In this document: one piece after another, positions 550-33,991 of the stretch | Layout: each line of letters starts with the position of its first letter | How positions within the stretch are numbered: the first letter of the stretch is position 1 | Assembly: GCA_029261065.1 (NCBI GenBank) | Contig: JAJDCB010000008.1 | Coordinates: 1-58,087 of the forward strand | Length of the DNA: 58,087 nt | Origin: Candidatus Omnitrophota bacterium | Lineage (GTDB): Bacteria > Omnitrophota > Gorgyraeia > Zapsychrales > Zapsychraceae | Reading direction: 5' to 3' | The notes under the pieces: model-generated | Database searches by the model: none | The model's input: only the letters and a program-made list of their open reading frames with translations | What the model was told of the DNA's origin: nothing | Program-made: the position numbers and the translations under genes

Positions 550-1834
550 AATAAATATCGGACTCATTGGCTATGGCGTTGTAGGATCAGGTGTAGCCAA
601 AATGCTTCTTAAACGTAAAAGCTTTATAAAAAATAAATACCATACGGAATTTTCTATCAAGACCCTTTGTGATCGTAGTCTTGGTAAAAAAGATACAAAA
701 AACCTTACACACACAAAATTTACAAAAAATTATCTTGATATCATCAATGACCCAGAAATAGATGTTGTTGTCGAACTTATTGGTGGGATGAATCCAGCTA
801 AAAAAATTGCCCAACAAACATTACAAAATGGCAAACATCTTATTACAGCCAACAAAGAGCTAATGGCGAATGCCGGTCAAGAATTGTTTGCCTTAGCTCA
901 AAAAAAGAGTGTCAGCATTTATTATGAATCTGCAGTAGGAGCGGGTATTCCTATCATTCAAACATTATCTGAAGGAGTGGTTGGTAATCAATTTACAGGG
1001 CTTTTTGGCATTATCAATGGAACGTGTAACTACATCTTAACGGAGATGACAAAAAGCAATCTTAGCTTTGATCAAGCCCTTAAATCTGCTCAAGAAAAAG
1101 GTTATGCTGAGAGTGATCCTACGTTAGATATTAATGGGATGGATAGTGCTCATAAACTGGCCATATTAGTCTCCCTAGCCTTTGGCAAATTTATCAAAAT
1201 AAAGGACATATATACAGAAGGCATCACACACATATCTCACGATGATATAGAGCAAGCGGAAAAACTAGATTTATCCATCAAACTTTTGGCTATCGCTAAA
1301 ATGACAGATGATAAAATTGAAGCACGCGTGCATCCAACATTAATCTCCAAAGAACATCCATTGGCTGCTATCAACAGCATTTACAATGCCCTATATCTAA
1401 ACGCCGATCCTTTAGGTGACGTTTTGTTATCAGGAGAGGGGGCCGGACAAATGGCGGCGGCATCTGGGGTTGTTAGTGACTTGATTAATTTAGCAGGAAA
1501 GGGGCAAAACGCTCATTTGTGGAGTAACTTGTCCGATGAAAATAAAAAATTAAAGACTAGAAAGATTGATGATATTGAATCTAAATTTTATTTGCGTTTC
1601 ATGGCCAGTGATAAACCAGGAGTCCTTGCCAAAATTACAGGCGTCCTAGGACGAGCCGGAATAGGCATTAATTCGGTCACACAAAAACAACACCATCAAA
1701 CATCAACCGTACCTGTCATTATGTTAACGGATTATTCGACTGAGAAAAAATTAAGGTCCGCTCTTAACACCATTCATAAAATGCCTGTTGTTAAAGCAAA
1801 ACCTGTAGCCATAAGGATGGAAAAATTATGGTAA
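542..1834 (+). CDS. hom: Homoserine dehydrogenase with C-terminal ACT domain
   Basis: GxGxxG (GYGVVGSG), [45 protein letters not shown]. Confidence 0.96.
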
Positions 1835-2889
1835 ATTGGAAAGGCCTTATTCATCACTACAGAGAGTATTTACCCGTCACAGATCAAACGCCTGTTGTCA
1901 CGTTATCGGAAGGAAATACACCTCTTATTTTTTCTGAACATTTATCTGAAACTTTAGGGTTAAACGTCTATCTTAAATACGAAGGATTAAATCCTACGGG
2001 ATCTTTCAAAGATCGTGGCATGACAATGGCGATTTCTAAAGCGAAAGAGCAGGGAGCCAAACTTGTCATGTGTGCGTCCACTGGAAACACATCGGCTTCA
2101 GCTGCAGCTTACGCAGCAAAAAGTGGCTCTCTTAAATGTGTAGTGTTAATCCCCGAAGGTAATATCGCTCTCGGTAAATTAGCGCAAGCCTTGATTCATC
2201 AAGCTCAAGTGATCGCCATTAAAGGAAACTTTGATGAGGCTCTCAACATTGTCAAAGACATCACGGATAATTATCCAGTAGAATTAGTTAACTCGATTAA
2301 TCCGTTTCGCATTGAAGGACAAAAAACAGCGGCCTTTGAAATTTGCGATTTTTTATCCGATGCGCCTGAATTTCACGCGATCCCCGTAGGCAATGCCGGT
2401 AATATCACCGCTTACTGGAAAGGATATAAAGAATATAAACAACACAACAAATCACAGCAGTTACCAACAATGTTAGGATTTCAAGCGGCTGGAGCAGCTC
2501 CTATTGTTCTTGGAAAAATTGTCGAAAATCCTGAAACGATTGCCACAGCTATTCGTATTGGCAACCCGGCAAGCTGGAAAGCGGCTGAGGCCGCGCGCGA
2601 TGAATCGAATGGTATCATCGATAGCGTTACTGATGACGAAATTCTTGAAGCCTATAAAATATTAGCCGCACACACCGGCGTCTTTGTAGAACCAGCATCT
2701 GCTGCATCTGTTGCCGGTGTTCTTAAATTACACAGCCAAGGTTATTTTGATGATCATAAAAATGCGCGTCTTGTTTGCACTGTGACAGGGCATGGGTTGA
2801 AGGATCCGAATACGGCGATAAAGAATGTGCAGGAGCCGGTGACGATGGAGGCGAATGTTAAGGCTGTGTTAGAGGAGATAGGGTTATAG
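1828..2889 (+). CDS. thrC: Threonine synthase
   Basis: PLP lysine motif [40 protein letters not shown]. Confidence 0.96.
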
Positions 2890-2915
2890 TATTCTTTCGT
2901 TTTTTACTATAACGA

Positions 2916-3006
2916 GGTTCCCGCTTTCGCGGGAATGACAATATTAAACTTGTTCTGTCATCGTCATTAACAATCAATTTTGTCATCCCCGCGGAAGCGG
3001 AGATCT
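2916..3006. repeat. REP/dRS3-like inverted doublet (REPIN-like), copy 1
   Basis: GGTTCCCGCTTTCGCGGGAATGACA (2916-2940) and TGTCATCCCCGCGGAAGCGGAGATCT (2981-3006) are imperfect reverse complements; each arm is itself a palindrome. Confidence 0.85.
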
Positions 3007-3011
3007 ATACC

Positions 3012-3656
3012 ATGCAAAACTTAAAAAATAAAAAAGTCCTCATCACTTGCGGCCCCACTTGGATCCCCATTGATGATACACGTATCATTAGCAACAAATC
3101 ATCTGGGCAACTGGGACAAATTATTGCGGATGATTTGGCTAAAATTCATTGCAAAGTCACCTTGCTAGAAGGTCCTGTTTTAAATGGTATTCAGCACAAA
3201 AAACTTAAAGTCCTTAAATTTCACTATTACGATGATTTTTTAAAAACTCTTAAACAACAATTAAAAAAACGTTACGATATTATCATTCATGCAGCGGCAA
3301 TTTCAGATTATAGATTAAGAAGACCTTTTACATCAAAAATTAGCTCGAAACTTAAAAAATTTAAACTCGAACTTGTACCAACGAAAAAAATAATTAATGA
3401 TATTAAACATTTAAGTCCTAAAAGTTTGTTAGTGGGATTTAAATTAAAATCAACCATGACTAAACCACTCGCCATAGCTAAAAGTAAAGTTTTATTTGAA
3501 AAAGCCAAATGTGATCTTGTGATCGCCAACTCTGTCTCAAACGATCATTACAAAGGTTACATTTTAAATAACGAAAATAAATTTCTGGCGTCAGCTCATT
3601 CTCGCAAAGAGATGTCTCGCGCCTTAGTTAAAACACTAAATAAATCTCTATCATGA
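3012..3656 (+). CDS. coaB: Stand-alone phosphopantothenate-cysteine ligase-like protein (CoaB half of CoaBC/Dfp)
   Basis: VLITCGPTWIPIDDTRIISNKSSGQLG, IHAAAISDY, LVGFKL, DLVIAN; no CoaC flavoprotein domain. Confidence 0.75.
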   Translation: MQNLKNKKVLITCGPTWIPIDDTRIISNKSSGQLGQIIADDLAKIHCKVTLLEGPVLNGIQHKKLKVLKFHYYDDFLKTLKQQLKKRYDIIIHAAAISDYRLRRPFTSKISSKLKKFKLELVPTKKIINDIKHLSPKSLLVGFKLKSTMTKPLAIAKSKVLFEKAKCDLVIANSVSNDHYKGYILNNENKFLASAHSRKEMSRALVKTLNKSLS

Positions 3657-4855
3657 AATACATAATCGTAGTCCCAGATGGCATGGCTGATGAGCCGGTA
3701 GAAGAATTAATGGGTAAAACACCATTAGAGGTTGCTGTTACGACCAACATGGATTTTATGGCTCAAAATGGTCAGACCGGACTGGTCCGCACAATTCCTA
3801 AGGGCATGCATCCTGGATCTGATGTAGGAAACATGTCTCTGCTAGGATTTGATCCTAAAAAATATCATACAGGTCGCGCTCCTTTAGAAGCGGCCAATTT
3901 AAATATTGATGTCGGCCAGGATGAAATCATTTTTCGCTGCAATTTAGTGACCATTGAAGATGAATGCATGTCAGATTATAGTGCCAGCCACATAAAAACA
4001 GAAGAGGCAAGCATCCTAATTGAGGCCTTAAACAAAGAATTAAAAAATGAAAGTATCCGTTTCATTCCTGGTAAGAGCTATCGACACCTCATGCTCATTA
4101 AAACGAATGAAATGAAAAAGATGTGTGAGCTTCAAACAAATGCCCCACATGACATCTTAAATAAACCGATTAAAAACTTTTTACCAAAGGGCGAGGGAGC
4201 GGATCAACTTTTAGAGCTTATCGAAAAATCCCGTTCGATTTTAACTAATCACGATGTTAATAAAGTCCGTGTAGATTTAGGCGAAAATCCAGCCAATATG
4301 ATCTGGCTTTGGGGACAAGGAACTAAACCTCAATTACCACGCTTTGAAGATAAATATGGCCTTAAGGGAGGAATCATTTCCGCCGTTGATTTGGTCAACG
4401 GCATTGGGCGCTTAGTCGATCTTGAGGTTATTGATGTCCCTGGAATCACTGGTTACTATGATACCAATTATTTAGGCAAAGCGGAGTATGCCTTAAAGGC
4501 TTTAAAAAATAAAGACTTTGTCTATATTCATATCGAAGCCCCTGATGAAGCAGGACACAATGGTGACGCTAAAGCCAAAGTCTCGGCCATCGAACGCATT
4601 GATAAAGACATACTCGGCACCATTCTTAATCATTACAACGAACATGATGATGTTCGTATTTTAGTCTTACCGGATCATCCCACACCCATACGTCTTCGGA
4701 CACACACGGATGATCCTGTAGGATATATTATGTACGGCAAAGGTATTTCTCCTGATGGGTCCAAACAGTTTACTGAAAAGTCAGCGGCTGAGAAGGGACT
4801 CAAATTTGAAGGAGGAGAACCGTTAATAGAACACTTCATTAAAAAATACTTATAA
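3653..4855 (+). CDS. apgM: Cofactor-independent phosphoglycerate mutase-like (ApgM/alkaline phosphatase superfamily); possible homoserine kinase substitute
   Basis: VPDGMAD, PGSDVGNMS (catalytic Ser), HIEAPDEAGH, LPDHPTP; located between thrC and lysC. Confidence 0.8.
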   Translation: MKYIIVVPDGMADEPVEELMGKTPLEVAVTTNMDFMAQNGQTGLVRTIPKGMHPGSDVGNMSLLGFDPKKYHTGRAPLEAANLNIDVGQDEIIFRCNLVTIEDECMSDYSASHIKTEEASILIEALNKELKNESIRFIPGKSYRHLMLIKTNEMKKMCELQTNAPHDILNKPIKNFLPKGEGADQLLELIEKSRSILTNHDVNKVRVDLGENPANMIWLWGQGTKPQLPRFEDKYGLKGGIISAVDLVNGIGRLVDLEVIDVPGITGYYDTNYLGKAEYALKALKNKDFVYIHIEAPDEAGHNGDAKAKVSAIERIDKDILGTILNHYNEHDDVRILVLPDHPTPIRLRTHTDDPVGYIMYGKGISPDGSKQFTEKSAAEKGLKFEGGEPLIEHFIKKYL

Positions 4856-4864
4856 CACCTTATT

Positions 4865-6079
4865 ATGAAAAATATCATTGTACAAAAATTTGGGGGTTCA
4901 TCAGTTGCTAATATTGATCGAATCAAAATTGTCGCCAGACGTATTATCGCGTCTAAGAAAAAAGATAATCATCTTGTCGTTGTTGTCTCGGCTTTAGGAG
5001 ATACTACTGATGAACTTGAAAACTTAGCTCATAAAATTACCAATACACCAGCCGAACGCGAAATGGATATGTTAATGTCTACAGGTGAGCAAATATCATC
5101 AGCGCTCCTGGCCATGGCCATCAAAACACTTGGATCTGATGCGATATCCTTTACTGGATCTCAAGTCGGTATCAAAACAAATAAATCTCATACCAAAGCT
5201 CGTATTGAAACGATTGATTGTCATTGTATTAAAAAAGCGTTGAAAGAAAACAAAATTGTTATCGTGGCAGGCTATCAAGGGATCACCGAAGATAATGATA
5301 TTACTACCCTTGGTCGAGGAGGTTCTGACCTTACAGCTGTTGCGCTGGCTTATTCTCTAAAGGCAAAGGTCTGCGAGATTTATACAGACGTTAAAGGAAT
5401 CTACACCACAGATCCAAGAAAGGTCAAACAAGCGAAAAAAATAAAACAAATCACATTTGAAGAGATGTTAGAGATGGCTTCTCTTGGAGCACAAGTTATG
5501 CAAGCGCGCTCCATTGAAGTTGCCAAAAGATTTAATATCCCCATACATGTCCGATCAAGCTTTTCGAAGGAGGAAGGAACTATGATTGTTAAACAAACAG
5601 ACAAATTAGAAGATATCGCTGTGCGCGGTATAACAAGCAATTCATCTGAGGCAAAAATTACCATTCGCGCTGTTCCTGATCAAGCTGGAATCGCGGCTAA
5701 AATATTTACAGAGATTTCAAAGGCTGGCTCCAATGTTGATTTGATTGTTCAAAATGTCAGCCAAACCAAACATACCGACATCTCTTTTACCGTTCCTAAA
5801 AAAGATCTCACCAAAGCCTTAAAAGCCTCGCGTGCGGTCGCTAAAAAAATTAAAGCCGGTGACGTTCTTCACGATGATAACATCGCTCGTGTCTCAATTG
5901 TTGGTTCTGGCATGAGATCACATCATGGCATCGCAGCATCCATGTTTGAGGTGTTAGCTAAAAATAAGATTAATATCGATATGATTTCAACATCTGAGAT
6001 TAGCATTTCTTGTATTATTGAAAAGAAGCATGAAGCGAAAGCCGTTGAGGTTTTGCATAAAACATTTAAATTAAACTAA
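4865..6079 (+). CDS. lysC: Aspartate kinase with two ACT domains
   Basis: VQKFGGSSV, VVSALGDTTD, TLGRGGSDLTA, YTDVKG, DMISTSEIS. Confidence 0.96.
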   Translation: MKNIIVQKFGGSSVANIDRIKIVARRIIASKKKDNHLVVVVSALGDTTDELENLAHKITNTPAEREMDMLMSTGEQISSALLAMAIKTLGSDAISFTGSQVGIKTNKSHTKARIETIDCHCIKKALKENKIVIVAGYQGITEDNDITTLGRGGSDLTAVALAYSLKAKVCEIYTDVKGIYTTDPRKVKQAKKIKQITFEEMLEMASLGAQVMQARSIEVAKRFNIPIHVRSSFSKEEGTMIVKQTDKLEDIAVRGITSNSSEAKITIRAVPDQAGIAAKIFTEISKAGSNVDLIVQNVSQTKHTDISFTVPKKDLTKALKASRAVAKKIKAGDVLHDDNIARVSIVGSGMRSHHGIAASMFEVLAKNKINIDMISTSEISISCIIEKKHEAKAVEVLHKTFKLN

Positions 6080-6096
6080 CCAAGAAGGTATCTATT

Positions 6097-7668
6097 ATGT
6101 CCCGAATAACAATATACGACACAACACTTAGAGACGGCTCGCAAACCGAAGGAATATCCTTTACGGTCAACGATAAAATAAAGATTACAGAGAAATTAGA
6201 TAAACTTGGTGTGCATTACATTGAGGGAGGGTGGCCTGGCTCAAATCCTAAAGATAAAGATTATTTTAAGAACTACAAAGGCAAAAAACTTAAAAACGCA
6301 ACGATTGCCGCCTTTGGTTCTACACGTCGTGCTAAAACGAAACCGGAGGAAGATGTTAATCTTAAAGAACTTGTCAGTTCAGGAGCAAGCACCGTTACCA
6401 TCTTTGGAAAATCCTGGGATATGCATGTCACAGATGTCATCAAAACCAGCTTAGAAGAAAATGTCAGAATGATTAGTGATTCTGTAGCCTTTTTAAAAAA
6501 GAAGAAAAGAGAAGTCTTCTATGATGCTGAACATTTTTTTGATGGCTACAAACGCAATCCTCAATACGCCTTAAGCACAGTCTTAGCTGCTCAAGAAGCG
6601 GGCGCAAGTTGCATCATTTTCTGTGACACCAATGGAGGAACACTCCCAACAGAAGTTAAAGAAATCATCCTAGAAATCAAGGATCGCTTTACCGTTGAAT
6701 TAGGTATCCATACGCATAATGATTTAGGATTAGCTGTGGCTAATAGCCTTGCCGCCGTAGAAGCGGGTTGTACTCACATCCAAGGAACATTTAACGGATT
6801 AGGGGAACGTTGCGGAAATGCGGACTTGTGCACCTTAATGGGAATCTTACAGACGAAATTAAATAAAAAATCAATTGGTGAAAAGAACATTCCCAAACTA
6901 ATGGAAGCTTCGTATTTCATCAGCGAGATCAGTAATTTTAAACTGCCTGACAATGCTCCTTTTGTCGGACATTCGGCCTTCGCGCATAAGGGAGGCGTTC
7001 ATATCGATGCGATGATCAAAAATCCTTTGGCGTATGAGCATATCGAACCCACTCTTGTTGGAAATCACCGACGTTTTGTAACATCAGAATTAGCGGGCAA
7101 GATGCCTATCATTCTTAAAGCTAAAAAGATGAATGTCGATCTAGATAAAAAATCTCCTGAGGCTAAAAAGATTTTAAAGAACCTTCAAATCAAAGAACAT
7201 GGCGGCTATCAATTTGAAGCGGCCGATGCCTCTTTCGAATTATTTTTAAAACGCCAACTTAAAAAATACAAACCCTTCTTTAAATTGGAAGGATTTCGAA
7301 CAGCCTCTGAAAAACGATTTGATGGCCGCGTCTTTGCTGAGGCCAGCATTCGTGTCAGCGTCAATGGGGAAAGTAAATTTAGTGCCAGTGAAGGCGATGG
7401 TCCCGTGGATGCGTTAGATAAAGCCTTAAGAGGGGCATTATCTAAATTTTATCCTACATTAGAACAGATGCACTTAAGAGATTATAAGGTTCGCGTCTTA
7501 AACTCCAAAGAAGGCGCAGCTGCCAAAGTCCGCGTGCTTATCGAATCTCAAGATAATACCGACTCTTGGACGACAGTGGGCGTTCATGAAAATATCATCG
7601 AAGCGAGTTGGGAGGCATTAACCGACAGCATCGAATATAAGCTGCTTAAAGATCAAAAGAAAAAATAA
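6097..7668 (+). CDS. cimA: Citramalate synthase
   Basis: YDTTLRDGSQ, IEGGWPGSNPKD, YDAEHFFDG, CDTNGG, GIHTHND, AHKGGVH; C-terminal regulatory domain GDGPVDAL...DYKVRV. Confidence 0.92.
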   Translation: MSRITIYDTTLRDGSQTEGISFTVNDKIKITEKLDKLGVHYIEGGWPGSNPKDKDYFKNYKGKKLKNATIAAFGSTRRAKTKPEEDVNLKELVSSGASTVTIFGKSWDMHVTDVIKTSLEENVRMISDSVAFLKKKKREVFYDAEHFFDGYKRNPQYALSTVLAAQEAGASCIIFCDTNGGTLPTEVKEIILEIKDRFTVELGIHTHNDLGLAVANSLAAVEAGCTHIQGTFNGLGERCGNADLCTLMGILQTKLNKKSIGEKNIPKLMEASYFISEISNFKLPDNAPFVGHSAFAHKGGVHIDAMIKNPLAYEHIEPTLVGNHRRFVTSELAGKMPIILKAKKMNVDLDKKSPEAKKILKNLQIKEHGGYQFEAADASFELFLKRQLKKYKPFFKLEGFRTASEKRFDGRVFAEASIRVSVNGESKFSASEGDGPVDALDKALRGALSKFYPTLEQMHLRDYKVRVLNSKEGAAAKVRVLIESQDNTDSWTTVGVHENIIEASWEALTDSIEYKLLKDQKKK

Positions 7669-7680
7669 TGACATCTGTTG

Positions 7681-7729
7681 TGCAGAATGTTTAAAGCGGA
7701 TAACCAAGAGAAGTTATCCGTTTTCTGCA
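7681..7729 (+). terminator. Nested stem-loop between cimA and valS
   Basis: Inner stem GCGGATAAC/GTTATCCGT (7696-7721) followed by a short T run; outer stem TGCAGAA/TTCTGCA. Confidence 0.4.
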
Positions 7730-7755
7730 ATAGGATACAATGAAAAAAGGCAACT

Positions 7756-10395
7756 ATGACAGAGTTATCCAAACGTTTTAATTTTAAAGAAGTTGATGAA
7801 AAATGGTCCAATCATTGGGTTGATAAAGGATTATTTCATACCAAACCGCATAAAGATAAAAAGCCGTATACCATCGTTATTCCGCCGCCCAACGTCACCG
7901 GCATTCTGCATATGGGGCATGCCTTAAATGATACCCTTCAAGATATTATTATTCGATATAAACGTATGAATGGTTATGAAGCCTTATGGATGCCAGGAAC
8001 GGATCATGCTGGGATTGCCACACAGAATGTGGTTGAAAAACAATTGGCCAAGGAGGGACAAAAGCGTCAAGATTTAGGACGTGACGCCTTTGTCGAACGC
8101 TTGTGGGATTGGAAGCAGCAGTATGGGGATACGATTATTCATCAGCTTAAAAAGCTAGGATCCTCATGTGATTGGTCGCGCACGCGCTTTACCATGGATG
8201 ACGATTATAGTCATGCCGTCAAAGATGTTTTTATCAAACTCTATGCTAAAGGCCTTATCTATCGCGGACAATATATCATCAATTGGTGCCCTAGATGTCA
8301 AACCGCGCTTTCGGATGAAGAAGTTGAACACGAAGATTTGCCAGGAAATCTTTATCATATTAAATATGCCTTAAAAGAAGATCCCAATAAATTTCTAGTT
8401 GTCGCTACAACGCGGCCTGAAACCATGTTAGGGGACACGGCCGTTGCGGTTAACCCAAAAGACGAACGTTATAAAGACTTTATTGGAAAAAACTTAATTC
8501 TACCTTTAGTCAATCGAGAAATCCCAATTATTGAAGATGACTTTGTTAATCCCGAATTTGGAACAGGGGCGGTTAAAGTAACACCAGCGCATGACCCAAA
8601 TGACTTTGATATAGGAAAACGTCACGACTTACCTTTTATCAATATCCTCAATCCTGATGCAACACTCAACAAAGAAGCCGGCGCCGATTATGAAGGGATG
8701 GATCGCTTTGAAGCGCGTGAAGTTATCATATCAACCCTAAAAGAGGCCAAACTATTAACTAAAGTGGAACAACACACCCATGCTGTTGGCCATTGTTATC
8801 GTTGTCATACGGTTATCGAACCTTATATCTCCAAACAATGGTTTGTTAAGATGAAACCTTTGGCAGGCCCGGCAAGAGATGCGGTAACAACAGGTGCCAT
8901 CAAATTTTATCCGGATAGATGGACCAAAGTGTATTTAAATTGGATGGATAACATCCGCGATTGGTGTATCTCACGCCAGATTTGGTGGGGACACCGCATA
9001 CCTGTTTGGTATGATGATCAAGAAAATATTTATGTGGCTTACAATGAAGAAGAAGCCTTGGCCCAAGCCCGCGACAAAAGGGGAGAGGCTGTTAAGTTGC
9101 GCCAAGATCCAGATGTTTTAGACACTTGGTTCTCTTCTTGGTTATGGCCGTTTGCAACCTTAGGCTGGCCCAATAAAAGTGAAGATTTGGATTACTTCTA
9201 TCCAACAGCATCCCTTTTTACGGCGTCTGAAATTATTTTCTTCTGGGTCGCGCGCATGGTTATGGCTGGGATTGAATTTATCGGAGAAATTCCTTTTAAA
9301 GATGTCTACATTCATGGAACCGTTCGCGACACTGAGGGGCGGAAAATGTCTAAGTCTTTAGGCAACGCCATTGATCCGCTTGAAATCATCAACGAATATG
9401 GCGCCGATGCCCTGCGTTTTAGTTTAATTATGAACTCAGGCCAAGATCTTTTTGTCTCCAAAGAAAAATTTGAGGTAGGACGCAACTTTGCCAATAAAAT
9501 TTGGAATGCCACACGCCTTATTTTAATGAACACCTCTGAGATAGATTCTAATTTTGATATCACCAAAAAAGAACATATCCAAACAATGGAACTTTCTCAT
9601 CAATGGATTATTTCTAAATTTTATACAACTCTCCAAAAAGTTAATCAATCCATTGAAAGTTATCGTTATTCAGAAGCTGAAACATTAATGTATGAATTTT
9701 TCTGGAGCAACTTTTGTGATTGGTATCTAGAAATCATCAAAAACAAATGGGATGACAAAGACACCCAAAATGTGACATATAAAATTTTAGAATTGTCCTT
9801 GCAGATGATGCACCCTTTTATGCCTTTTGTGACTGAAGAGATTTGGCAACATATTAAGCCGGAAGCCGGAGAAATCTGCACATCCCTCTGGCCTGAGATA
9901 CAGTCTCAACTTATTGATGAGAGCAAAGAAGAGCAAATGTCATATGTCATCGATATGATCACCGCTGTTCGTAATATGCGAGCCCAGTGGAATATTAGCC
10001 CTAAACTAAAAACGAAATGTTATTTTGACGCTTCGGGTAATACAACCTTCAACATACAAGAACACGAACAAAGCCTCCTTCGTTTAGCTCAACTCGAAAC
10101 ATTAGAAGAGGACATCAAAATCACGCAACGAAAGAATATCGCTATCACACTTGTTCATGGGATAAAAATAGCTATTGATTTAGGAGAGGTTGTCGATGTA
10201 GCTAAAGAAAAGGCACGCATGATTAAAGAGAGGGAGGGCTTGATCAAATTAAAAGATAATCTGGCCAAGCGTTTGGATAATAAAAGTTTTACGGATAAAG
10301 CGCCGAAGGAAGTAGTGAAGAAGGAAAAGGGTCGATTGGAGGCCCTGGAGCAAAAGACTGAGGAGTTGCAGAAAGTTATCGCCTCTTTACATTAA
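7756..10395 (+). CDS. valS: Valine--tRNA ligase
   Basis: PPPNVTGILHMGHA (HIGH motif), KMSKS, WCISRQIWWGH, DVLDTWFSS, C-terminal coiled coil. Confidence 0.98.
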   Translation: MTELSKRFNFKEVDEKWSNHWVDKGLFHTKPHKDKKPYTIVIPPPNVTGILHMGHALNDTLQDIIIRYKRMNGYEALWMPGTDHAGIATQNVVEKQLAKEGQKRQDLGRDAFVERLWDWKQQYGDTIIHQLKKLGSSCDWSRTRFTMDDDYSHAVKDVFIKLYAKGLIYRGQYIINWCPRCQTALSDEEVEHEDLPGNLYHIKYALKEDPNKFLVVATTRPETMLGDTAVAVNPKDERYKDFIGKNLILPLVNREIPIIEDDFVNPEFGTGAVKVTPAHDPNDFDIGKRHDLPFINILNPDATLNKEAGADYEGMDRFEAREVIISTLKEAKLLTKVEQHTHAVGHCYRCHTVIEPYISKQWFVKMKPLAGPARDAVTTGAIKFYPDRWTKVYLNWMDNIRDWCISRQIWWGHRIPVWYDDQENIYVAYNEEEALAQARDKRGEAVKLRQDPDVLDTWFSSWLWPFATLGWPNKSEDLDYFYPTASLFTASEIIFFWVARMVMAGIEFIGEIPFKDVYIHGTVRDTEGRKMSKSLGNAIDPLEIINEYGADALRFSLIMNSGQDLFVSKEKFEVGRNFANKIWNATRLILMNTSEIDSNFDITKKEHIQTMELSHQWIISKFYTTLQKVNQSIESYRYSEAETLMYEFFWSNFCDWYLEIIKNKWDDKDTQNVTYKILELSLQMMHPFMPFVTEEIWQHIKPEAGEICTSLWPEIQSQLIDESKEEQMSYVIDMITAVRNMRAQWNISPKLKTKCYFDASGNTTFNIQEHEQSLLRLAQLETLEEDIKITQRKNIAITLVHGIKIAIDLGEVVDVAKEKARMIKEREGLIKLKDNLAKRLDNKSFTDKAPKEVVKKEKGRLEALEQKTEELQKVIASLH

Positions 10396-10402
10396 TACTT
10401 TT

Positions 10403-10476
10403 GGGTCCCCGCTTTCGCGGGGATGACAATATTATTTTTAATCGTAAAGATGTCATTCCCGCGCAAGCGGGAATCC
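10403..10476. repeat. REP/dRS3-like inverted doublet (REPIN-like), copy 2
   Basis: GGGTCCCCGCTTTCGCGGGGATGACA (10403-10428) and TGTCATTCCCGCGCAAGCGGGAATCC (10451-10476); both copies continue ATGACAATATTA. Confidence 0.85.
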
Positions 10477-10498
10477 GTGCCCATTAATCACTATCACC

Positions 10499-11353
10499 AT
10501 GAACACAACACAATCAACCATCAATCGCATCATCCAGAACGCCCTAAATGAAGATCGCGTGAATCACGATGTTACATCCCAATCGTTGATTCCAGCGTCT
10601 TCAGTATCCACAGCGTATATTGTCCTAAAAGAAGACGCCACGCTGTGCGGCATAGATGTGGCCAAAAAGGTTTTTACTTTGCTTAGCCCACGCATCAACT
10701 TTCGTAAATTGGCAAACGATGGCGATCAGATTAAAAAAGGAACACAGGTAGCTGCAATAAAAGGAAACAGCCGTAAGATATTAGCAGGAGAGAGGGTTGC
10801 TCTTAACTTTTTGGGGCATTTATCTGGCATTGCCACACAAACCAAAAAATATGTTCAAGCGACTAAACCTTATAAAGCCAAGATTCTCGATACCCGAAAA
10901 ACCACCCCCGGATTAAGAATTTTAGAAAAATATGCGGTACGTTGTGGAGGTGGCGTTAACCATCGTATGAGCTTAGAAGATATGGTTCTTATCAAAGATA
11001 ATCATAGAGAAGCTCTTTCTTCAAATGATGCGTTAAAAGATGCTATAAAAAAAATTCGAAAGAAGAAACGTATTTCTATTGAGATCGAAGTGGATAATCT
11101 GATACAATTTAAAGAAGCACTTAAAACTCAGCCTGAATATATTTTATGCGATAATATGAATACAACACAACTAAAGAAAGCGCGCACACTTGTTAAAAAC
11201 TTAAAAAAAAGGCCACTTTTAGAAGCATCAGGGGGCGTCACATTACAAAGAGTAAAGAATCTCGCACGAACAGGAGTTGACAGAATATCAGTAGGGGCTT
11301 TAACCCACTCTGTGCAAGCCATAAACTTTTCAATGGAGTTTGTTACATCATGA
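10499..11353 (+). CDS. nadC: Quinolinate phosphoribosyltransferase
   Basis: DTRKTTPGLR, HRMSLEDMVLIKDNH, EIEVDN, EASGG, ISVGALTH. Confidence 0.96.
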   Translation: MNTTQSTINRIIQNALNEDRVNHDVTSQSLIPASSVSTAYIVLKEDATLCGIDVAKKVFTLLSPRINFRKLANDGDQIKKGTQVAAIKGNSRKILAGERVALNFLGHLSGIATQTKKYVQATKPYKAKILDTRKTTPGLRILEKYAVRCGGGVNHRMSLEDMVLIKDNHREALSSNDALKDAIKKIRKKKRISIEIEVDNLIQFKEALKTQPEYILCDNMNTTQLKKARTLVKNLKKRPLLEASGGVTLQRVKNLARTGVDRISVGALTHSVQAINFSMEFVTS

Positions 11354-12057
11354 AAAAAATAATACACATAACGGCATGTCTTTTGTTTTTAATGACATTT
11401 TTTAACATAGTATCCGGTGAAGAAAAAAGTGATCATAAAAACAACCATAAAAATGGTTCAGCCTTTATCCAAGAAGTCACTCAAACGGAAGATCGCGTTC
11501 TTCTTGAAGAATATATTGAAAAATATAAAAACCTCTCTAAAGAAACTATCCTAGCTCTTATCGATGCGGATGACTTTACATCCTTCAAACGTTCAGCTGC
11601 GATCCATATTTTCCGAGAAAATTTTAGTCGTGAGGTGGTTTCAAAAGAGAAAAAAACTATCGAAAAAATATTACTCAGACGCCTTAAAAAATCAGATTCA
11701 GCATTTGTTCAAGTAGAAATCATTCACACCCTATGTTTAATTGATCGTTATAAATATTTTAACTGGGCAATCCCTGAATTAATTCAAAAACTTGATCACT
11801 ATAACATTACTGTTAATGAACTAGCCTATAAAAGTCTCACTCATTTAATTGATGATAAAAACAATAGAGCAAGGGAAGCAAGGATCGTTTTTAACCGATT
11901 AAGAAAAGTATTATTCTTATCCCGCAAACGTTTTGCCACTATTAACACACCAGATAAAAAACTAGCACAAAAGTTATCTTTGGTTCGCTGGTCTGTTAAA
12001 GTATTAGGGACTCAAGAATTAAAAAGGCTTCCTAAAGAAATGCTTCATCTAATATAA
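11350..12057 (+). CDS. Exported hypothetical protein, probably helical/HEAT-like
   Basis: Signal-peptide-like N-terminus; 4-bp overlap with nadC; amphipathic helical pattern; no family motif recognised. Confidence 0.6.
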   Translation: MKKIIHITACLLFLMTFFNIVSGEEKSDHKNNHKNGSAFIQEVTQTEDRVLLEEYIEKYKNLSKETILALIDADDFTSFKRSAAIHIFRENFSREVVSKEKKTIEKILLRRLKKSDSAFVQVEIIHTLCLIDRYKYFNWAIPELIQKLDHYNITVNELAYKSLTHLIDDKNNRAREARIVFNRLRKVLFLSRKRFATINTPDKKLAQKLSLVRWSVKVLGTQELKRLPKEMLHLI

Positions 12058-18096: not shown

Positions 18097-18693
18097 CTAA
18101 TCCTTCAAAGCAGCTTTAAGCTGCTCAAACTCCCACTTATCATTAAAACTTTGAACAACACCATTATCTTCAACAGCTAAAGTTTTAAGCTCATCGCCCA
18201 ATGATTGAAAGATCGAATTAATTCCTAATTGATTATCTAATTGCAAAATACGCTCTAAAACGTTTGTAGAAAAGAGGGGGGGGTGACCTTTGCGATCATT
18301 AAACGTAGGGATAAGAATGAGAGGATTAGTTTTGCTAAATTCTGTTAACAGTTGATTAATTGTTGTCCTTAAAATGAGAGGGTAATCGACTGGCCATAAA
18401 AAACACCCTTTGGAATCTCCGCTCATCGCTTGAATGCCTGTTTTAAAAGATGAGGTTTGTCCAAAATTATGATCTTTATTATAGACAATCTTAACCTTTG
18501 TATGGTTTAATAGATGAGATTTGATTTCTTGATCATGAACACCTGTAACAACAATGATTTCAAATATTTCTGAACTTAATAGGGTGTTTTTTATTCGTTG
18601 AATCACAGTCTGAGACTCGGTTATTTGAGCCAACGCTTTGGGCGCTTCAAAACGAGTACTTCGACCAGCAGATAGAATAATGGCTGAAAACAT
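18097..18693 (-). CDS. mocA: MocA/YgfJ-like nucleotidyltransferase (molybdenum cofactor cytidylyltransferase-like)
   Basis: ILSAGRSTRF, WPVDYP, GHPPLF; start moved from 18870 to Met60 (18693) because the motif begins there and the extension overlaps the opposite gene. Confidence 0.75.
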   Translation of the reverse strand: MFSAIILSAGRSTRFEAPKALAQITESQTVIQRIKNTLLSSEIFEIIVVTGVHDQEIKSHLLNHTKVKIVYNKDHNFGQTSSFKTGIQAMSGDSKGCFLWPVDYPLILRTTINQLLTEFSKTNPLILIPTFNDRKGHPPLFSTNVLERILQLDNQLGINSIFQSLGDELKTLAVEDNGVVQSFNDKWEFEQLKAALKD

Positions 18694-18739
18694 AGCCACA
18701 TTATAAAAGAAGCCTAAAAATAATACTAGTATTAAAATT

Positions 18740-20830
18740 ATGCAAGAACACCTCAATCCATTTAATGTTTTTATATTTCTCATTGTCCTTGTAGCCTTAG
18801 GCATCTTATTTGTCATTTTTGTCATTATTAAGGATAATAAAAACGTTGGCGGATTCTCTGTTGTCCCCATAGAACCCGAGCAAATTCAGCAAGAAAATTT
18901 ATATACTAACGACACAGACACCGTTACCCCCATAATCCAGGATAACCCTCCACCACCAACGCCAACACCACCTTTCCCTGAGCCACAAAAGAAAAAAGGA
19001 AAAGGAGGCTTATTCGGTTCTCTAAAAAATAAAATTCCCTTTGGCAAAAAAAAGGATATGATTGAAGCTATTGATATTCCTGAAGCCACCCAATTTCCCT
19101 CCCTAAAAGACCATTTGGAAAGCGAAGAAAAAAAGAGAGCAGCCTTACAAGAAAGAGTAAGGCTATCACAAAATGAAGCAAACTTAGATAATTCAAACAA
19201 CCCAATAGACCTTAATAAAGAAAACTTATCACAGCAAGAGAAACAAAACATTGATCAAGAAATTGAAACATCTTTTCAATTGGATGAATTAAAAGACAAT
19301 CATGAAAAGACAAACAAACTTCTCAAAGAAAAAAATGATGAACTTCAAACAGTTAAAAACTCTTTAGAAAGTGAATTAAAAAATAGAAAAGAATTCAATA
19401 AAGTAAAAGATATTCTAGAAAAAGAATTAAGCGATACAAAGACACAAGCTAAAAAAGTTCAAGGAGATTTAAGCGCCACAACCATAGAGGCTGAAACTCA
19501 TAAAAAAAGAGTTAACCAACTTGAAGATAAAGTCACAAAACTTGAAAAAAGCATGCTTGAGAAGGAAGATGAATTAGAGAAACTTAACAAAAAGCTATCA
19601 GCAACACCGCCTCCAGCTGAAACAAAACTAGAAACAAAGAAAGAGCATAGTGAAGATATAAAGGAAGACGAAAAACCTATTGAAACACCACCTGTTCAAG
19701 AAGAAGAGACCTCACAGGCAGAAAAACCGATAGAAGAACCGAAAACAGAAGCTCCCCTTGATAATAAGACCACTGCATCTGAACAACCAAATGAAACACC
19801 GGAAGCTCCTCTACAAAAAAACCCAAATCCTCCATCAGAGCCTGAAAAAGCTAAGGCAGAAGAACCTAAAATAGATGAAAAATCTGAAGAAAAATCAACA
19901 GAAGAAACACCTAACGCAAACCCTGAGACTCCAGCAGAAGAACCAAAACAAAATTTAGAAACCGAACAAAAGGAACCTCAAGAAGAACCTCAAAAAGTCG
20001 ATACGCCAAAGCCAACCGAGCCTGCCAATGAAGAAAAACCTTCTGAGGAACCCGCCCAAATCCCTGTAGAAGATAAGAATCCGGTAAACGAAAAAAATGA
20101 CACACCCAATAATGCTGCACAGAATCCTGAAAAAAACGAAGATGAAGCATCTGACAAATCTTCTGATAAAATTTCTGAAAATAAAACAGATGAAATAAAA
20201 GAAAAAACATTAGAAGCTCAACCTGACACTCAAAATACTCAGGAACCAGATAACTCCAAACCAGAGGCTACACCTGAAAATCCTTTGCGTGAAGAAAAAA
20301 TAGATATCAAATTACCAGAATCTGCAGATCAAATCGATGTTGATGAACAAACGATAAACAAAAATGACGCGCCTAAAAGCGATACACCCACTTATAAACC
20401 GAATACGACAGACACCAAAACGTCTCTGCATTTATCTGAGCCTGTATCTGTATCACCTCCCAAAATAGTGCCAAATGACGACCCGTCCGGAAATGCCATT
20501 GATCTAAGTGATGTGCATTCTGAGGCTGAAAAAGTCATACATCAAAAGATTGAAGAAGAAAAAAAGCTCCAAAATTCTGAATTGACAAATACCGAAAATC
20601 CGGTAGAATCTCAACAGAAAGAACAAACCGACGAGGGTGCAGAAGAAAAAAAAGTGGAAATAAAAGAATCACCAGAAGAAAATCAAGAAAAACCGTTTTT
20701 GAAACTTAAACCAGACATTATGGTCTCAAAAGATTCAAAGGATGAAGAACCTAAATCTGATGAACCTATGGCCGATAAACCAAAGTCTGAAGAAGAAGGA
20801 TCTAAGGAAGAAGAACCAAATAAGGAGTAA
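18740..20830 (+). CDS. Membrane-anchored coiled-coil protein with long acidic low-complexity tail
   Basis: One N-terminal hydrophobic segment, Pro-rich stretch, heptad-like region around aa 170-290, about 400 aa rich in E/K/P/D/N. Confidence 0.8.
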
Positions 20831-21518: not shown

Positions 21519-22325
21519 ATGGATCAAGATCTTCTCACCAAAGCCTATAAAGCTCATAATAAAAATCAAGGTTACGCATTTGCAACTGTCATAGAAGCGA
21601 CACTTAAAGGCACACCGCGTAAATCTGGAGCAAAAATGATCGTCCTTGAAGATGGCCATTCGTACGGAACCATTGGTGGTGGTCGCAATGAAAAAGATGC
21701 AACTAAACGTTGTCTAGAGGCCATTAAAACCAATAAATCCTCAATCCTCACCTATGACTATTTTGGGCAAAAAGGACAATCTGTATGCGGTGGTCAGATC
21801 AAAGTTTTTATCGAACCATTTGCCAAAAAAAAAGATTTTGTCATATGTGGCGCTGGCCATATAGCATTACCACTATCTCAACTTGGAAAAATGTTAAATT
21901 ATAATGTCACAATCATTGATGACAGATCAGAGTTTACAAAAAATTCTCGTTTTCCTCATGTTGATAAAATCATTAAAGGCACTCACGCAAAAGCTTTATC
22001 AAAGCTCAAGATAGATTCCAAAAGTTATATTATGATTGTCACGCAGGGAAACGAATATGACTTTGAATGCCTTAGAGTGGCCTTAAAAACAAAAGCTGGT
22101 TATATTGGCGTTATTTCTAGCCAAGCCAAACGCATCAAATTTTTTAAACGTTTAAAGGCCTTAAAATTCTCAGAAAAAAATCTCAAAAGAATTATGATCC
22201 CAGCAGGCATAGACATTGGAGCGCAGACACCTGAAGAAATAGCAATATCCATTGCAAGTGAATTAATTACCCAAACTAATAAAGATTATATAGGAACAAC
22301 TAAGTTTAAGAAAAGGAGAGCGTGA
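21519..22325 (+). CDS. xdhC: XdhC/CoxI family molybdenum cofactor insertion chaperone
   Basis: GTPRKSGAKM, GTIGGG, CGGQIKVF, CGAGHIA, YIGVISS, GIDIGAQTPEEIAISI. Confidence 0.92.
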   Translation: MDQDLLTKAYKAHNKNQGYAFATVIEATLKGTPRKSGAKMIVLEDGHSYGTIGGGRNEKDATKRCLEAIKTNKSSILTYDYFGQKGQSVCGGQIKVFIEPFAKKKDFVICGAGHIALPLSQLGKMLNYNVTIIDDRSEFTKNSRFPHVDKIIKGTHAKALSKLKIDSKSYIMIVTQGNEYDFECLRVALKTKAGYIGVISSQAKRIKFFKRLKALKFSEKNLKRIMIPAGIDIGAQTPEEIAISIASELITQTNKDYIGTTKFKKRRA

Positions 22326-22738
22326 TGACCAAAGAGGAAGTGATTGATTTAATGAAAGATGCTGGATTTGGTTTTTTAGCAACCATTGAGGGAGGCAACC
22401 AACCCCGCGTGCGTCCTATGATGCCACTGTTATCTGATGATGGAAAAAAATTATTATTAGCGCTACTATCACGCTCTAGAACCATCTCTCAAGTTGAATC
22501 TAACCCCCAAGTTGAAATCTGTTTTGTAGATCGTAAAATGTGGTATTGTCGCGTGGCAGGAAAAGGGACTATAAGTGACAATTTAGAAAAGAAAGAAATC
22601 CTCTGGAATAATATCCCCATGCTTAAACAATATTTCGGAAGTCCAGATGACCCCAATTTTAAATTCATGGAAGTAGACATCCAAGAGTTAGAAGCCATGA
22701 CCCCGCATCAAAAAGAACCTGAAAAGATTAACCTCTAA
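22322..22738 (+). CDS. Pyridoxamine 5'-phosphate oxidase-like (split-barrel FMN-binding) protein
   Basis: FLAT...PRVRPM...QVESNPQVEIC pattern; 138 aa. Confidence 0.8.
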   Translation: MMTKEEVIDLMKDAGFGFLATIEGGNQPRVRPMMPLLSDDGKKLLLALLSRSRTISQVESNPQVEICFVDRKMWYCRVAGKGTISDNLEKKEILWNNIPMLKQYFGSPDDPNFKFMEVDIQELEAMTPHQKEPEKINL

Positions 22739-22929
22739 TCTAAATAAGGGAAGAACCCTTTAATTGCAAATCATAAGATATCTATTAATGTCTTTATTAC
22801 AAGAAAGAGGCATAACAATTAGATATTATTTAACTTGCTTATGATTGTTCTGAACACCAAACTCAAACAAAAAAGAGGCAGCTACAAAAAGAAGATCTAT
22901 AAATGATCTTCAGATTTTTGATCCTACCT

Positions 22930-22957
22930 ACTTAACATAACATATATTATAGGAAGT
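22930..22957 (-). other. XerC/XerD dif-like recombination site
   Basis: Minus strand ACTTCCTATAA-TATATG-TTATGTTAAGT (11+6+11 bp), close to the B. subtilis dif ACTTCCTAGAA-TATATA-TTATGTAAACT and with the conserved XerD arm TTATGT(T)AA; lies between convergent genes. Confidence 0.85.
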
Positions 22958-23490: not shown

Positions 23491-23550
23491 TTAATTTGAG
23501 CATTTACTCAAATTAAACCTGCATTTAAAATGAGCATATGCTCAAATTAA
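23491..23550. promoter_or_regulatory. Two palindromic operator-like sites upstream of the DUF134 gene
   Basis: TTAATTTGAGCATTTACTCAAATTAA (23491-23516) and perfect palindrome TGAGCATATGCTCA (23531-23544). Confidence 0.7.
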
Positions 23551-33945: not shown

Positions 33946-33991
33946 AGCCAAAACTATGCCAAACTATGACATATATGAGCATATTCTCAAA
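33946..33991 (-). promoter_or_regulatory. Sigma-54-like -24/-12 element next to a copy of the DUF134-type palindrome
   Basis: Minus strand TTGGCATAGTTTTGGCT (33946-33962; GG-N10-GC, one mismatch in -12) and TGAGCATATTCTCA (33976-33989). Confidence 0.35.

Follow-up and report, generated by a model that had tools for sequence, protein, structure and literature searches.

The window analysed here, i.e. the whole stretch of 58,087 nucleotides, is all of contig C34 of a 36-contig Omnitrophota MAG (2.71 Mb, 37% GC, 95% complete). Its long ORFs form two blocks that face each other, those on the left all lying on the plus strand with the exception of 18097-18870, and those on the right all lying on the minus strand. 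The plus block ends with an XdhC-like and a PNPOx-like gene, and the nearest gene of the opposing block encodes a small helix-turn-helix (HTH) protein with the DUF134 domain. The gap of 305 bp between the last plus ORF and this convergent gene holds a 28-bp sequence with the architecture of a dif site and, beside it, a terminator-like hairpin (Table 1). Further to the left, a 696-aa ORF at 18740-20830 (+) has no NCBIfam match; the stretch around it shows an extreme AT skew of 0.42, and the ORF has a GC skew of -0.75 at second codon positions.

Table 1. Features of the locus and of the element found at the equivalent site of a relative (positions are those of the window unless a locus is named).
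Feature	Position	Strand	Basis or remark
dif, 28-bp XerC/XerD recombination site (very probable)	22930..22957	-	sequence, uniqueness, phylum conservation
XerC arm of dif, ACTTCCTATAA	22947-22957	-	arm assigned by likeness to E. coli/B. subtilis dif
central region of dif, TATATG	22941-22946	-	
XerD arm of dif, TTATGTTAAGT	22930-22940	-	arm assigned by likeness to E. coli/B. subtilis dif
DUF134 (PF02001) HTH gene, 137 aa	23044..23457	-	Pfam 81.9 bits, cut-off 27
two palindromes 34 bp apart upstream of the DUF134 gene	23497..23544	.	probable autoregulatory operators
XdhC-like gene	21519-22325	+	XerD-side neighbour, one of the last two genes of the plus block
PNPOx-like gene	22322-22738	+	XerD-side neighbour, last gene of the plus block
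bidirectional terminator-like hairpin, GAAGATC-N7-GATCTTC, T runs on both strands	22891..22911	.	19 bp past the XerD arm
integrase-less PM2-like prophage, 10.95 kb	L183 (G164:C3:194393-207301), element 1029-11979		exactly within dif

Read on the minus strand, the site is ACTTCCTATAATATATGTTATGTTAAGT, which divides into ACTTCCTATAA-TATATG-TTATGTTAAGT, an 11-6-11 layout with the inner palindrome ATAA-N6-TTAT. The original prediction had described this XerC/XerD structure on the minus strand, with four differences from the B. subtilis dif and a position at the gene-orientation convergence with one dissenting ORF on the left. Both the sequence and the comparison of the arms agree with it, the recount gives four mismatches to the B. 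subtilis dif, ACTTCCTAGAATATATATTATGTAAACT (PMC3025954), and the ORFs are oriented as claimed. Furthermore, the XerD arm is one base apart from the E. coli XerD arm, TTATGTTAAAT (PMC2731167), and among 100 shuffles of the window none contained a match to dif at three or fewer mismatches.

The same prediction, according to which the window probably contains the chromosome-dimer-resolution site, had named among its checks uniqueness in the genome, the presence of xerC, xerD and ftsK, and occurrence of the same 28-mer in related genomes. In regard to uniqueness, the site is single-copy in the 36-contig, 95%-complete draft, where no second dif was found at six or fewer mismatches to either the site itself or the B. 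subtilis dif. A looser scan for ATAA-N6-TTATG-NN-AA returned 17 matches genome-wide, all of them with poor arms and rejected as dif candidates. Likewise, all three genes of the machinery were found. The genome encodes three tyrosine recombinases, on contigs C30, C35 and C2. The first is XerD, scoring 383 bits with the TIGR02225 equivalog cut-off at 329.6, and the second is XerC, scoring 346.5 bits with the TIGR02224 equivalog cut-off at 335.15, and the catalytic R..K..HxxR..H..Y motifs are readable in both sequences. The third recombinase (C2:7282-7707 (-), 327-333 aa) is divergent, its HxLRH motif reading CCLRD with the tyrosine retained. The single FtsK (C30:9297-11636) has 4TM, alpha, motor and gamma domains, the gamma domain (PF09397) being recognised with 97 bits; a linker of ~70 residues, nearly all Glu/Asp, lies between its membrane domain and its alpha domain. 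Among the ranked strand-skewed 7- and 8-mers no FtsK-orienting (KOPS-like) polar motif could be separated, because 92% of genes are on the leading strand and skew every coding-biased word.

On the model of their E. coli and B. subtilis homologues, XerC would bind the ACTTCCTATAA arm and XerD the TTATGTTAAGT arm. In a chromosome dimer trapped at the septum, FtsK would translocate toward dif, its gamma domain would activate XerD for the first strand exchange, and XerC would then resolve the Holliday junction across the 6-bp central region, giving rise to monomers.

Another 12 species, all of them Candidatus Omnitrophota MAGs and some labelled 'Planctomycetales', carry the identical 28-mer, each in one copy. 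Base composition does not explain this identity, since the four holders whose GC content was measured have 40-48% GC, compared to 37% here. At three or fewer mismatches, a match is present in 132 of the 401 genomes of the phylum, 129 of them with exactly one copy, and the reversed pattern used as a control matched in 0 of 401. Within the window's own order 47 of 55 genomes hold a match at this threshold, and each of the seven relatives examined holds one copy. The logo built from 131 sites carries 1.1-2.0 bits at all positions but position 17, which varies among G, C and A; information content falls steeply at the edges of the site, to ~0-0.6 bits in the flanks. The consensus for the phylum is ACTTCCTATAA-TATATC-TTATGTTAACT, and the window holds the variant with G at positions 17 and 27. 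Two dif-like sites on separate contigs were observed in G186 (C41:4881, C21:1770), G194 (C24:28975, C32:6978) and G341 (C32:73, C26:764630); such pairs may stem from Xer-dependent elements, either integrated or extrachromosomal, or from duplication in the assembly.

Outside the phylum, the dif core is the only part of the region with matches, at 87-92% identity, to sites on plasmids of Bacillus, Staphylococcus, Listeria and Acinetobacter. As the organism is an Omnitrophota MAG and not a Firmicute, the likeness to the Bacillus dif is due to the general conservation of dif and not to kinship. Published surveys of dif, one of them with 16 phyla (PMC3025954), do not include Omnitrophota, and prediction failed in Planctomycetes. 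Our literature search found no paper on dif in Omnitrophota, and the site is very probably a dif newly found in a phylum where it was previously undescribed.

Related genomes also place the site at the point where gene orientation changes. In all four relatives with long contigs, the fraction of coding sequence on the plus strand drops from ~1 to ~0 at dif, so that the third of these checks is also borne out: the same or a near-identical 28-mer is found in relatives as a single copy at their gene-orientation convergence. The site is intergenic in 41 of 42 loci, and its immediate flanks are convergent in 26 of 39. In relatives, dif lies at 40-57% of the chromosome from dnaA, and roughly opposite to it in three long assemblies. 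The complete chromosome of G364 (OY759724.1; 3,360,633 bp) has dnaA at 1.322 Mb and dif at 3.226 Mb, a 56.6/43.4 split; the distance between the two is 947 kb in the ~1.8 Mb genome of G162 and 0.80 Mb in the ~2.0 Mb genome of G156. In the window's own genome, dnaA is located 43 kb into contig C19, at a point where skew and gene orientation switch together. Uniqueness, machinery and conservation in relatives all favour the original prediction, and we consider it highly probable that the 28-mer is the single, genuine dif site of this chromosome. It sits at the meeting point of the chromosome's two gene-orientation halves and, in this lineage, is encoded as a unit with the DUF134 HTH gene that reads in from its XerC side.

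The DUF134 gene lies on the XerC-arm side of dif and points at it, with 86 bp between its stop codon and the site. The core of its AlphaFold model (residues 32-91) is confidently predicted as an HTH resembling sigma-70 region 4. A sequence search of the PDB with the protein gave no match, its fold search returned only generic matches to sigma-region-4 and DeoR HTH domains, and in the literature searched no function of DUF134 has been published. Homologues are present in 227 of the 401 phylum genomes. When their coordinates were crossed with those of dif, 90 sites were found in genomes with a strong homologue, and 81 of them have the DUF134 gene on the XerC-arm side, no more than 600 bp away and pointing at dif, at a median distance of 117 bp, with four further sites showing the same geometry at 1.4-11 kb. 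The sole exception in polarity (G402:C8:47827-48410) has the DUF134 gene on the XerD-arm side, with dif inverted relative to the gene. The linkage also has predictive value, as a diverged dif was predicted after the DUF134 gene in 15 of 20 genomes lacking a match at three or fewer mismatches, and in an independent sample 72 of 80 species picked by the DUF134 protein alone have a forward dif a few hundred bases downstream. Gaps of 0.7-4 kb between gene and site occur in L072, L075, L148, L149, L153 and L122, and in G218:C5, G158:C2 and G312:C11. Several of these wide-gap sites have an unusual XerC arm (TGGG...), and the loci with such arms may be what is left of small elements that inserted at dif.

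Upstream of the DUF134 gene, the palindrome TGAGCATATGCTCA is perfect at 23531-23544, its single perfect occurrence in the genome, and a copy with two mismatches lies at 23497-23510. Within ~140 bp upstream of the DUF134 orthologue, GAGCATATGCTC is found at two or fewer mismatches in ~68 of 79 loci, often paired, with the copies exactly 34 bp apart. Judged from this arrangement, the two palindromes of the window are probably autoregulatory operators of the gene. A MatP-like distribution of the palindrome was ruled out, the genome having only three good copies, and a pilin gene at 33976 is preceded by a further near-copy.

The XerD side is conserved less deeply. The XdhC-like and PNPOx-like pair accompanies dif in 40 of 95 loci, all from close relatives, and in none of the 30 distant loci selected by dif. 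Since these neighbours are common to close relatives only, the DUF134-dif pair is the deepest conserved feature of the locus. The distance between dif and the PNPOx-like gene is 191 bp in the window, compared to 258-497 bp in close relatives. No terminator-like site was seen between the DUF134 stop codon and dif, and the hairpin past the XerD arm would end both the plus-strand operon and a DUF134 transcript that reads through dif.

Positions +1 to +80 on the XerD side of loci L033-L162 were scanned for further elements, and three were observed. The half-operator GAGCATAT, half of the DUF134 operator, begins at +2 past the XerD arm in 11 of 122 loci, as compared to 0-1 in control windows. An inverted repeat TAAC-N17-GTTA with an invariant core is found in relatives at about +24 to +50; only about half of the sequences can form its outer pairs, and its covariation is modest (0.183 compared to 0.117 in shuffles, with 5 of 500 shuffles as high), too modest for the repeat to be called a structured RNA, and Rfam gave no match for the dif region. 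Finally, TGTGGAWAA, which is exactly complementary to the consensus DnaA box, occurs at +66 to +70 past dif in 48 of 119 loci, in a single orientation and nowhere else within the 160-nt flank. The half-operator, the inverted repeat and the DnaA box are all absent from the flank in the window and therefore dispensable here.

These observations raise the possibility, which we hold to be tentative, that dif is only one part of a larger cassette in which DUF134, and perhaps DnaA, act in cis on recombination or on the organisation of the terminus. The order of parts would be operators, DUF134 gene and dif, followed in relatives by the half-operator, the TAAC/GTTA inverted repeat and the DnaA box, and DUF134 would have an accessory or regulatory role like that of PepA/ArgR at cer, of XafT in TLC-phi, or of rtp beside TerI. 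The fixed polarity of the linkage, the diverged sites predicted from the gene and the sites recovered from the protein alone are consistent with such an arrangement, as is the fact that the linkage to DUF134 outlasts all other neighbours. The half-operator abutting the XerD arm and the DnaA box at a set distance and in one orientation point in the same direction. However, the window is devoid of all three flank elements, and family f4 holds the exact 28-mer yet has lost a strong DUF134 orthologue. Moreover, the only clear DUF134 operators lie ~550 bp from dif, which fits plain autoregulation, the near-copy upstream of the pilin gene suggests an ordinary transcription factor, and a canonical FtsK gamma domain is present, so that an extra activator would not be needed. 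We consider it unlikely, on this balance, that Omnitrophota possess a terminus cassette in the full sense, where DUF134 and possibly DnaA, the latter through the box at +68, would gate or orient dimer resolution beside XerC/XerD or organise the terminus, the window holding a reduced version with operators, gene and dif only. Such a cassette would act in a lineage that has near-absolute gene-strand bias and whose forks would routinely run hundreds of kb past dif.

Further evidence on the nature of the site comes from the relative G164. There, the site after the DUF134 gene is a hybrid, ACTTCCTATAA-TGTATC-TT|GACTAGGAT, and a full site, ACTTCCTATAATGTATCTTATGTTAACT, lies 10.95 kb off in the same orientation. 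The two ends of the element between them share 20 identical bases, comprising the XerC arm, the central region and TT. No tyrosine recombinase was found in the element. The proteins it encodes include a double-jelly-roll coat protein of the PM2 P2 type (PF25513, PF18628), an FtsK/HerA-type packaging ATPase and a DnaD-like protein, as well as one that has an F5/8 type C (galactose-binding-like) domain and is also matched by phage tail-protein families. Such a structure bears the signature of integration by the host Xer recombinases, the degenerate XerD arm being presumably derived from the element, and, though indirect, it is the best available evidence of in vivo recombination at the 28-mer. 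The original prediction had seen in dif an entry point for Xer-exploiting elements, with none integrated in the window; the prophage of G164, which sits in the site, bears out the former. The site of the window is empty, and the half-site scan of the window found no XerC-arm copy that could belong to a degenerate second att site, XerD-arm-like 11-mers with one mismatch occurring there at chance rate.

The position of the site after the DUF134 gene also allows a different explanation, in which it would be a dif look-alike that does not recombine, serving as a binding site or a 3'-UTR element of that gene (an operator, a terminator or an RNA element). The 28-mer does follow the gene and would be transcribed in its 3' end, the sole terminator-like hairpin being located beyond it. 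We nevertheless regard this explanation as very improbable, as f4 genomes keep the exact 28-mer at gene convergence without a DUF134 orthologue, the same positions are conserved as in the dif of other phyla, the DUF134 operator is a different palindrome, there is no Rfam match, and an integrase-less prophage has recombined precisely inside the site in G164.

With the 28-mer taken as the genuine dif, its relation to nucleotide skew is unusual. In the window's genome, leading-strand genes have a coding GC3 skew of +0.28, with just 4.7% of them below zero, and lagging-strand genes have -0.26. The plus-strand genes left of dif, which point toward it, all show negative GC3 skew (18 of 18, mean -0.19; Mann-Whitney p = 1e-12 against leading-strand genes), and all 29 genes right of dif show positive GC3 skew. 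The silent sites of the plus strand are thus C-rich on both sides of dif, and the sign of the third-codon GC skew does not change there. Skew and orientation are discordant throughout C4 (181 kb) as well as in the left 22 kb of C34, the first ~80 kb of C17 and the first 20 kb of C21, in total ~300 kb or 11% of the genome. On C17 the sign of GC3 skew changes gradually at ~80-90 kb with gene orientation constant. On C21, also with constant orientation, GC3 skew jumps abruptly from -0.3 to +0.35 at ~20 kb, possibly because the sequence was rearranged at this point or a block was recently inverted.

The pattern is reproduced in relatives. In G364 gene orientation flips at dif, and GC3 skew switches ~165 kb earlier (C1:3060000-3225000), near the antipode of dnaA, and in G003 skew is negative on either side of dif. 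Whereas dif usually coincides with the skew shift, the site of the window does not, the offsets given for Proteobacteria in the part of the literature consulted being 0.2-78 kb (PMC2731167). Since third-codon skew is negative on both sides, the site in the window, while it marks dif, is probably not the meeting place of forks, and one fork appears to run ~300 kb past dif in this genome. The simplest reading would be unequal replichores without an efficient fork trap, with forks meeting near the antipode of the origin. One fork would then pass head-on through genes that still point at dif, where silent sites would have re-equilibrated and gene orientation not yet.

That the silent-site skew switches on C17 and not in the window, together with a loose ATAA-N6-TTATG match at C17:76694, might instead place the true terminus and its dif near the C17 switch and make the window site secondary or a relict, but this has hardly any probability, given that the C17 match, with 10 mismatches in its arms, is among 17 generic ones genome-wide, that nothing outside the window lies within six mismatches of dif, and that the conserved dif of G364 is also ~165 kb off the skew switch, yet exactly at the orientation flip.

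A dif consensus for a large uncultivated phylum provides an anchor for orienting and closing Omnitrophota assemblies. It also helps in spotting Xer-dependent mobile elements, one PM2-like prophage having been found in this way. The fixed linkage of DUF134 to dif is a testable lead to the function of a widespread domain, and if the cassette reading were true, it would give PF02001 its first function. Finally, the separation of dif and the orientation flip from the skew switch is reproducible, so the structural terminus and the meeting place of forks are probably uncoupled in this lineage, which bears on the long-standing question of whether replication ends at dif.

In comparison with known systems, the site resembles the dif of B. 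subtilis (CodV/RipX) and E. coli (XerC/XerD, activated by FtsK) in its 28-bp, 11-6-11 structure with inner ATAA-N6-TTAT, in being single-copy and intergenic between convergent genes, and in that the genes for two Xer paralogues and a gamma-domain FtsK lie at other places in the genome. In contrast to both, it lies hundreds of kb off the silent-site skew switch and is tightly linked to a DUF134 gene. A gene linked to the chromosomal dif with conserved adjacency is also known from xerS-difSL of streptococci and lactococci and xerH-difH of Helicobacter and Campylobacter. In those systems, however, an atypical site is linked to the gene for the only recombinase, whereas the site of the window has canonical form, with xerC and xerD unlinked on other contigs and a small HTH protein of the DUF134 family encoded by the linked gene. 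A single-recombinase system of the difSL/XerS or difH/XerH kind was accordingly rejected, two canonical Xer paralogues being present elsewhere and the adjacent gene being DUF134. The G164 element, for its part, is similar to IMEX without a proper XerD arm (TLC-phi type) in lacking an integrase and in being flanked by a full dif at one end and, at the other, by a site whose XerD arm is degenerate, but, unlike these, it is not a filamentous phage and carries a double-jelly-roll coat protein of PM2 type and a packaging ATPase.
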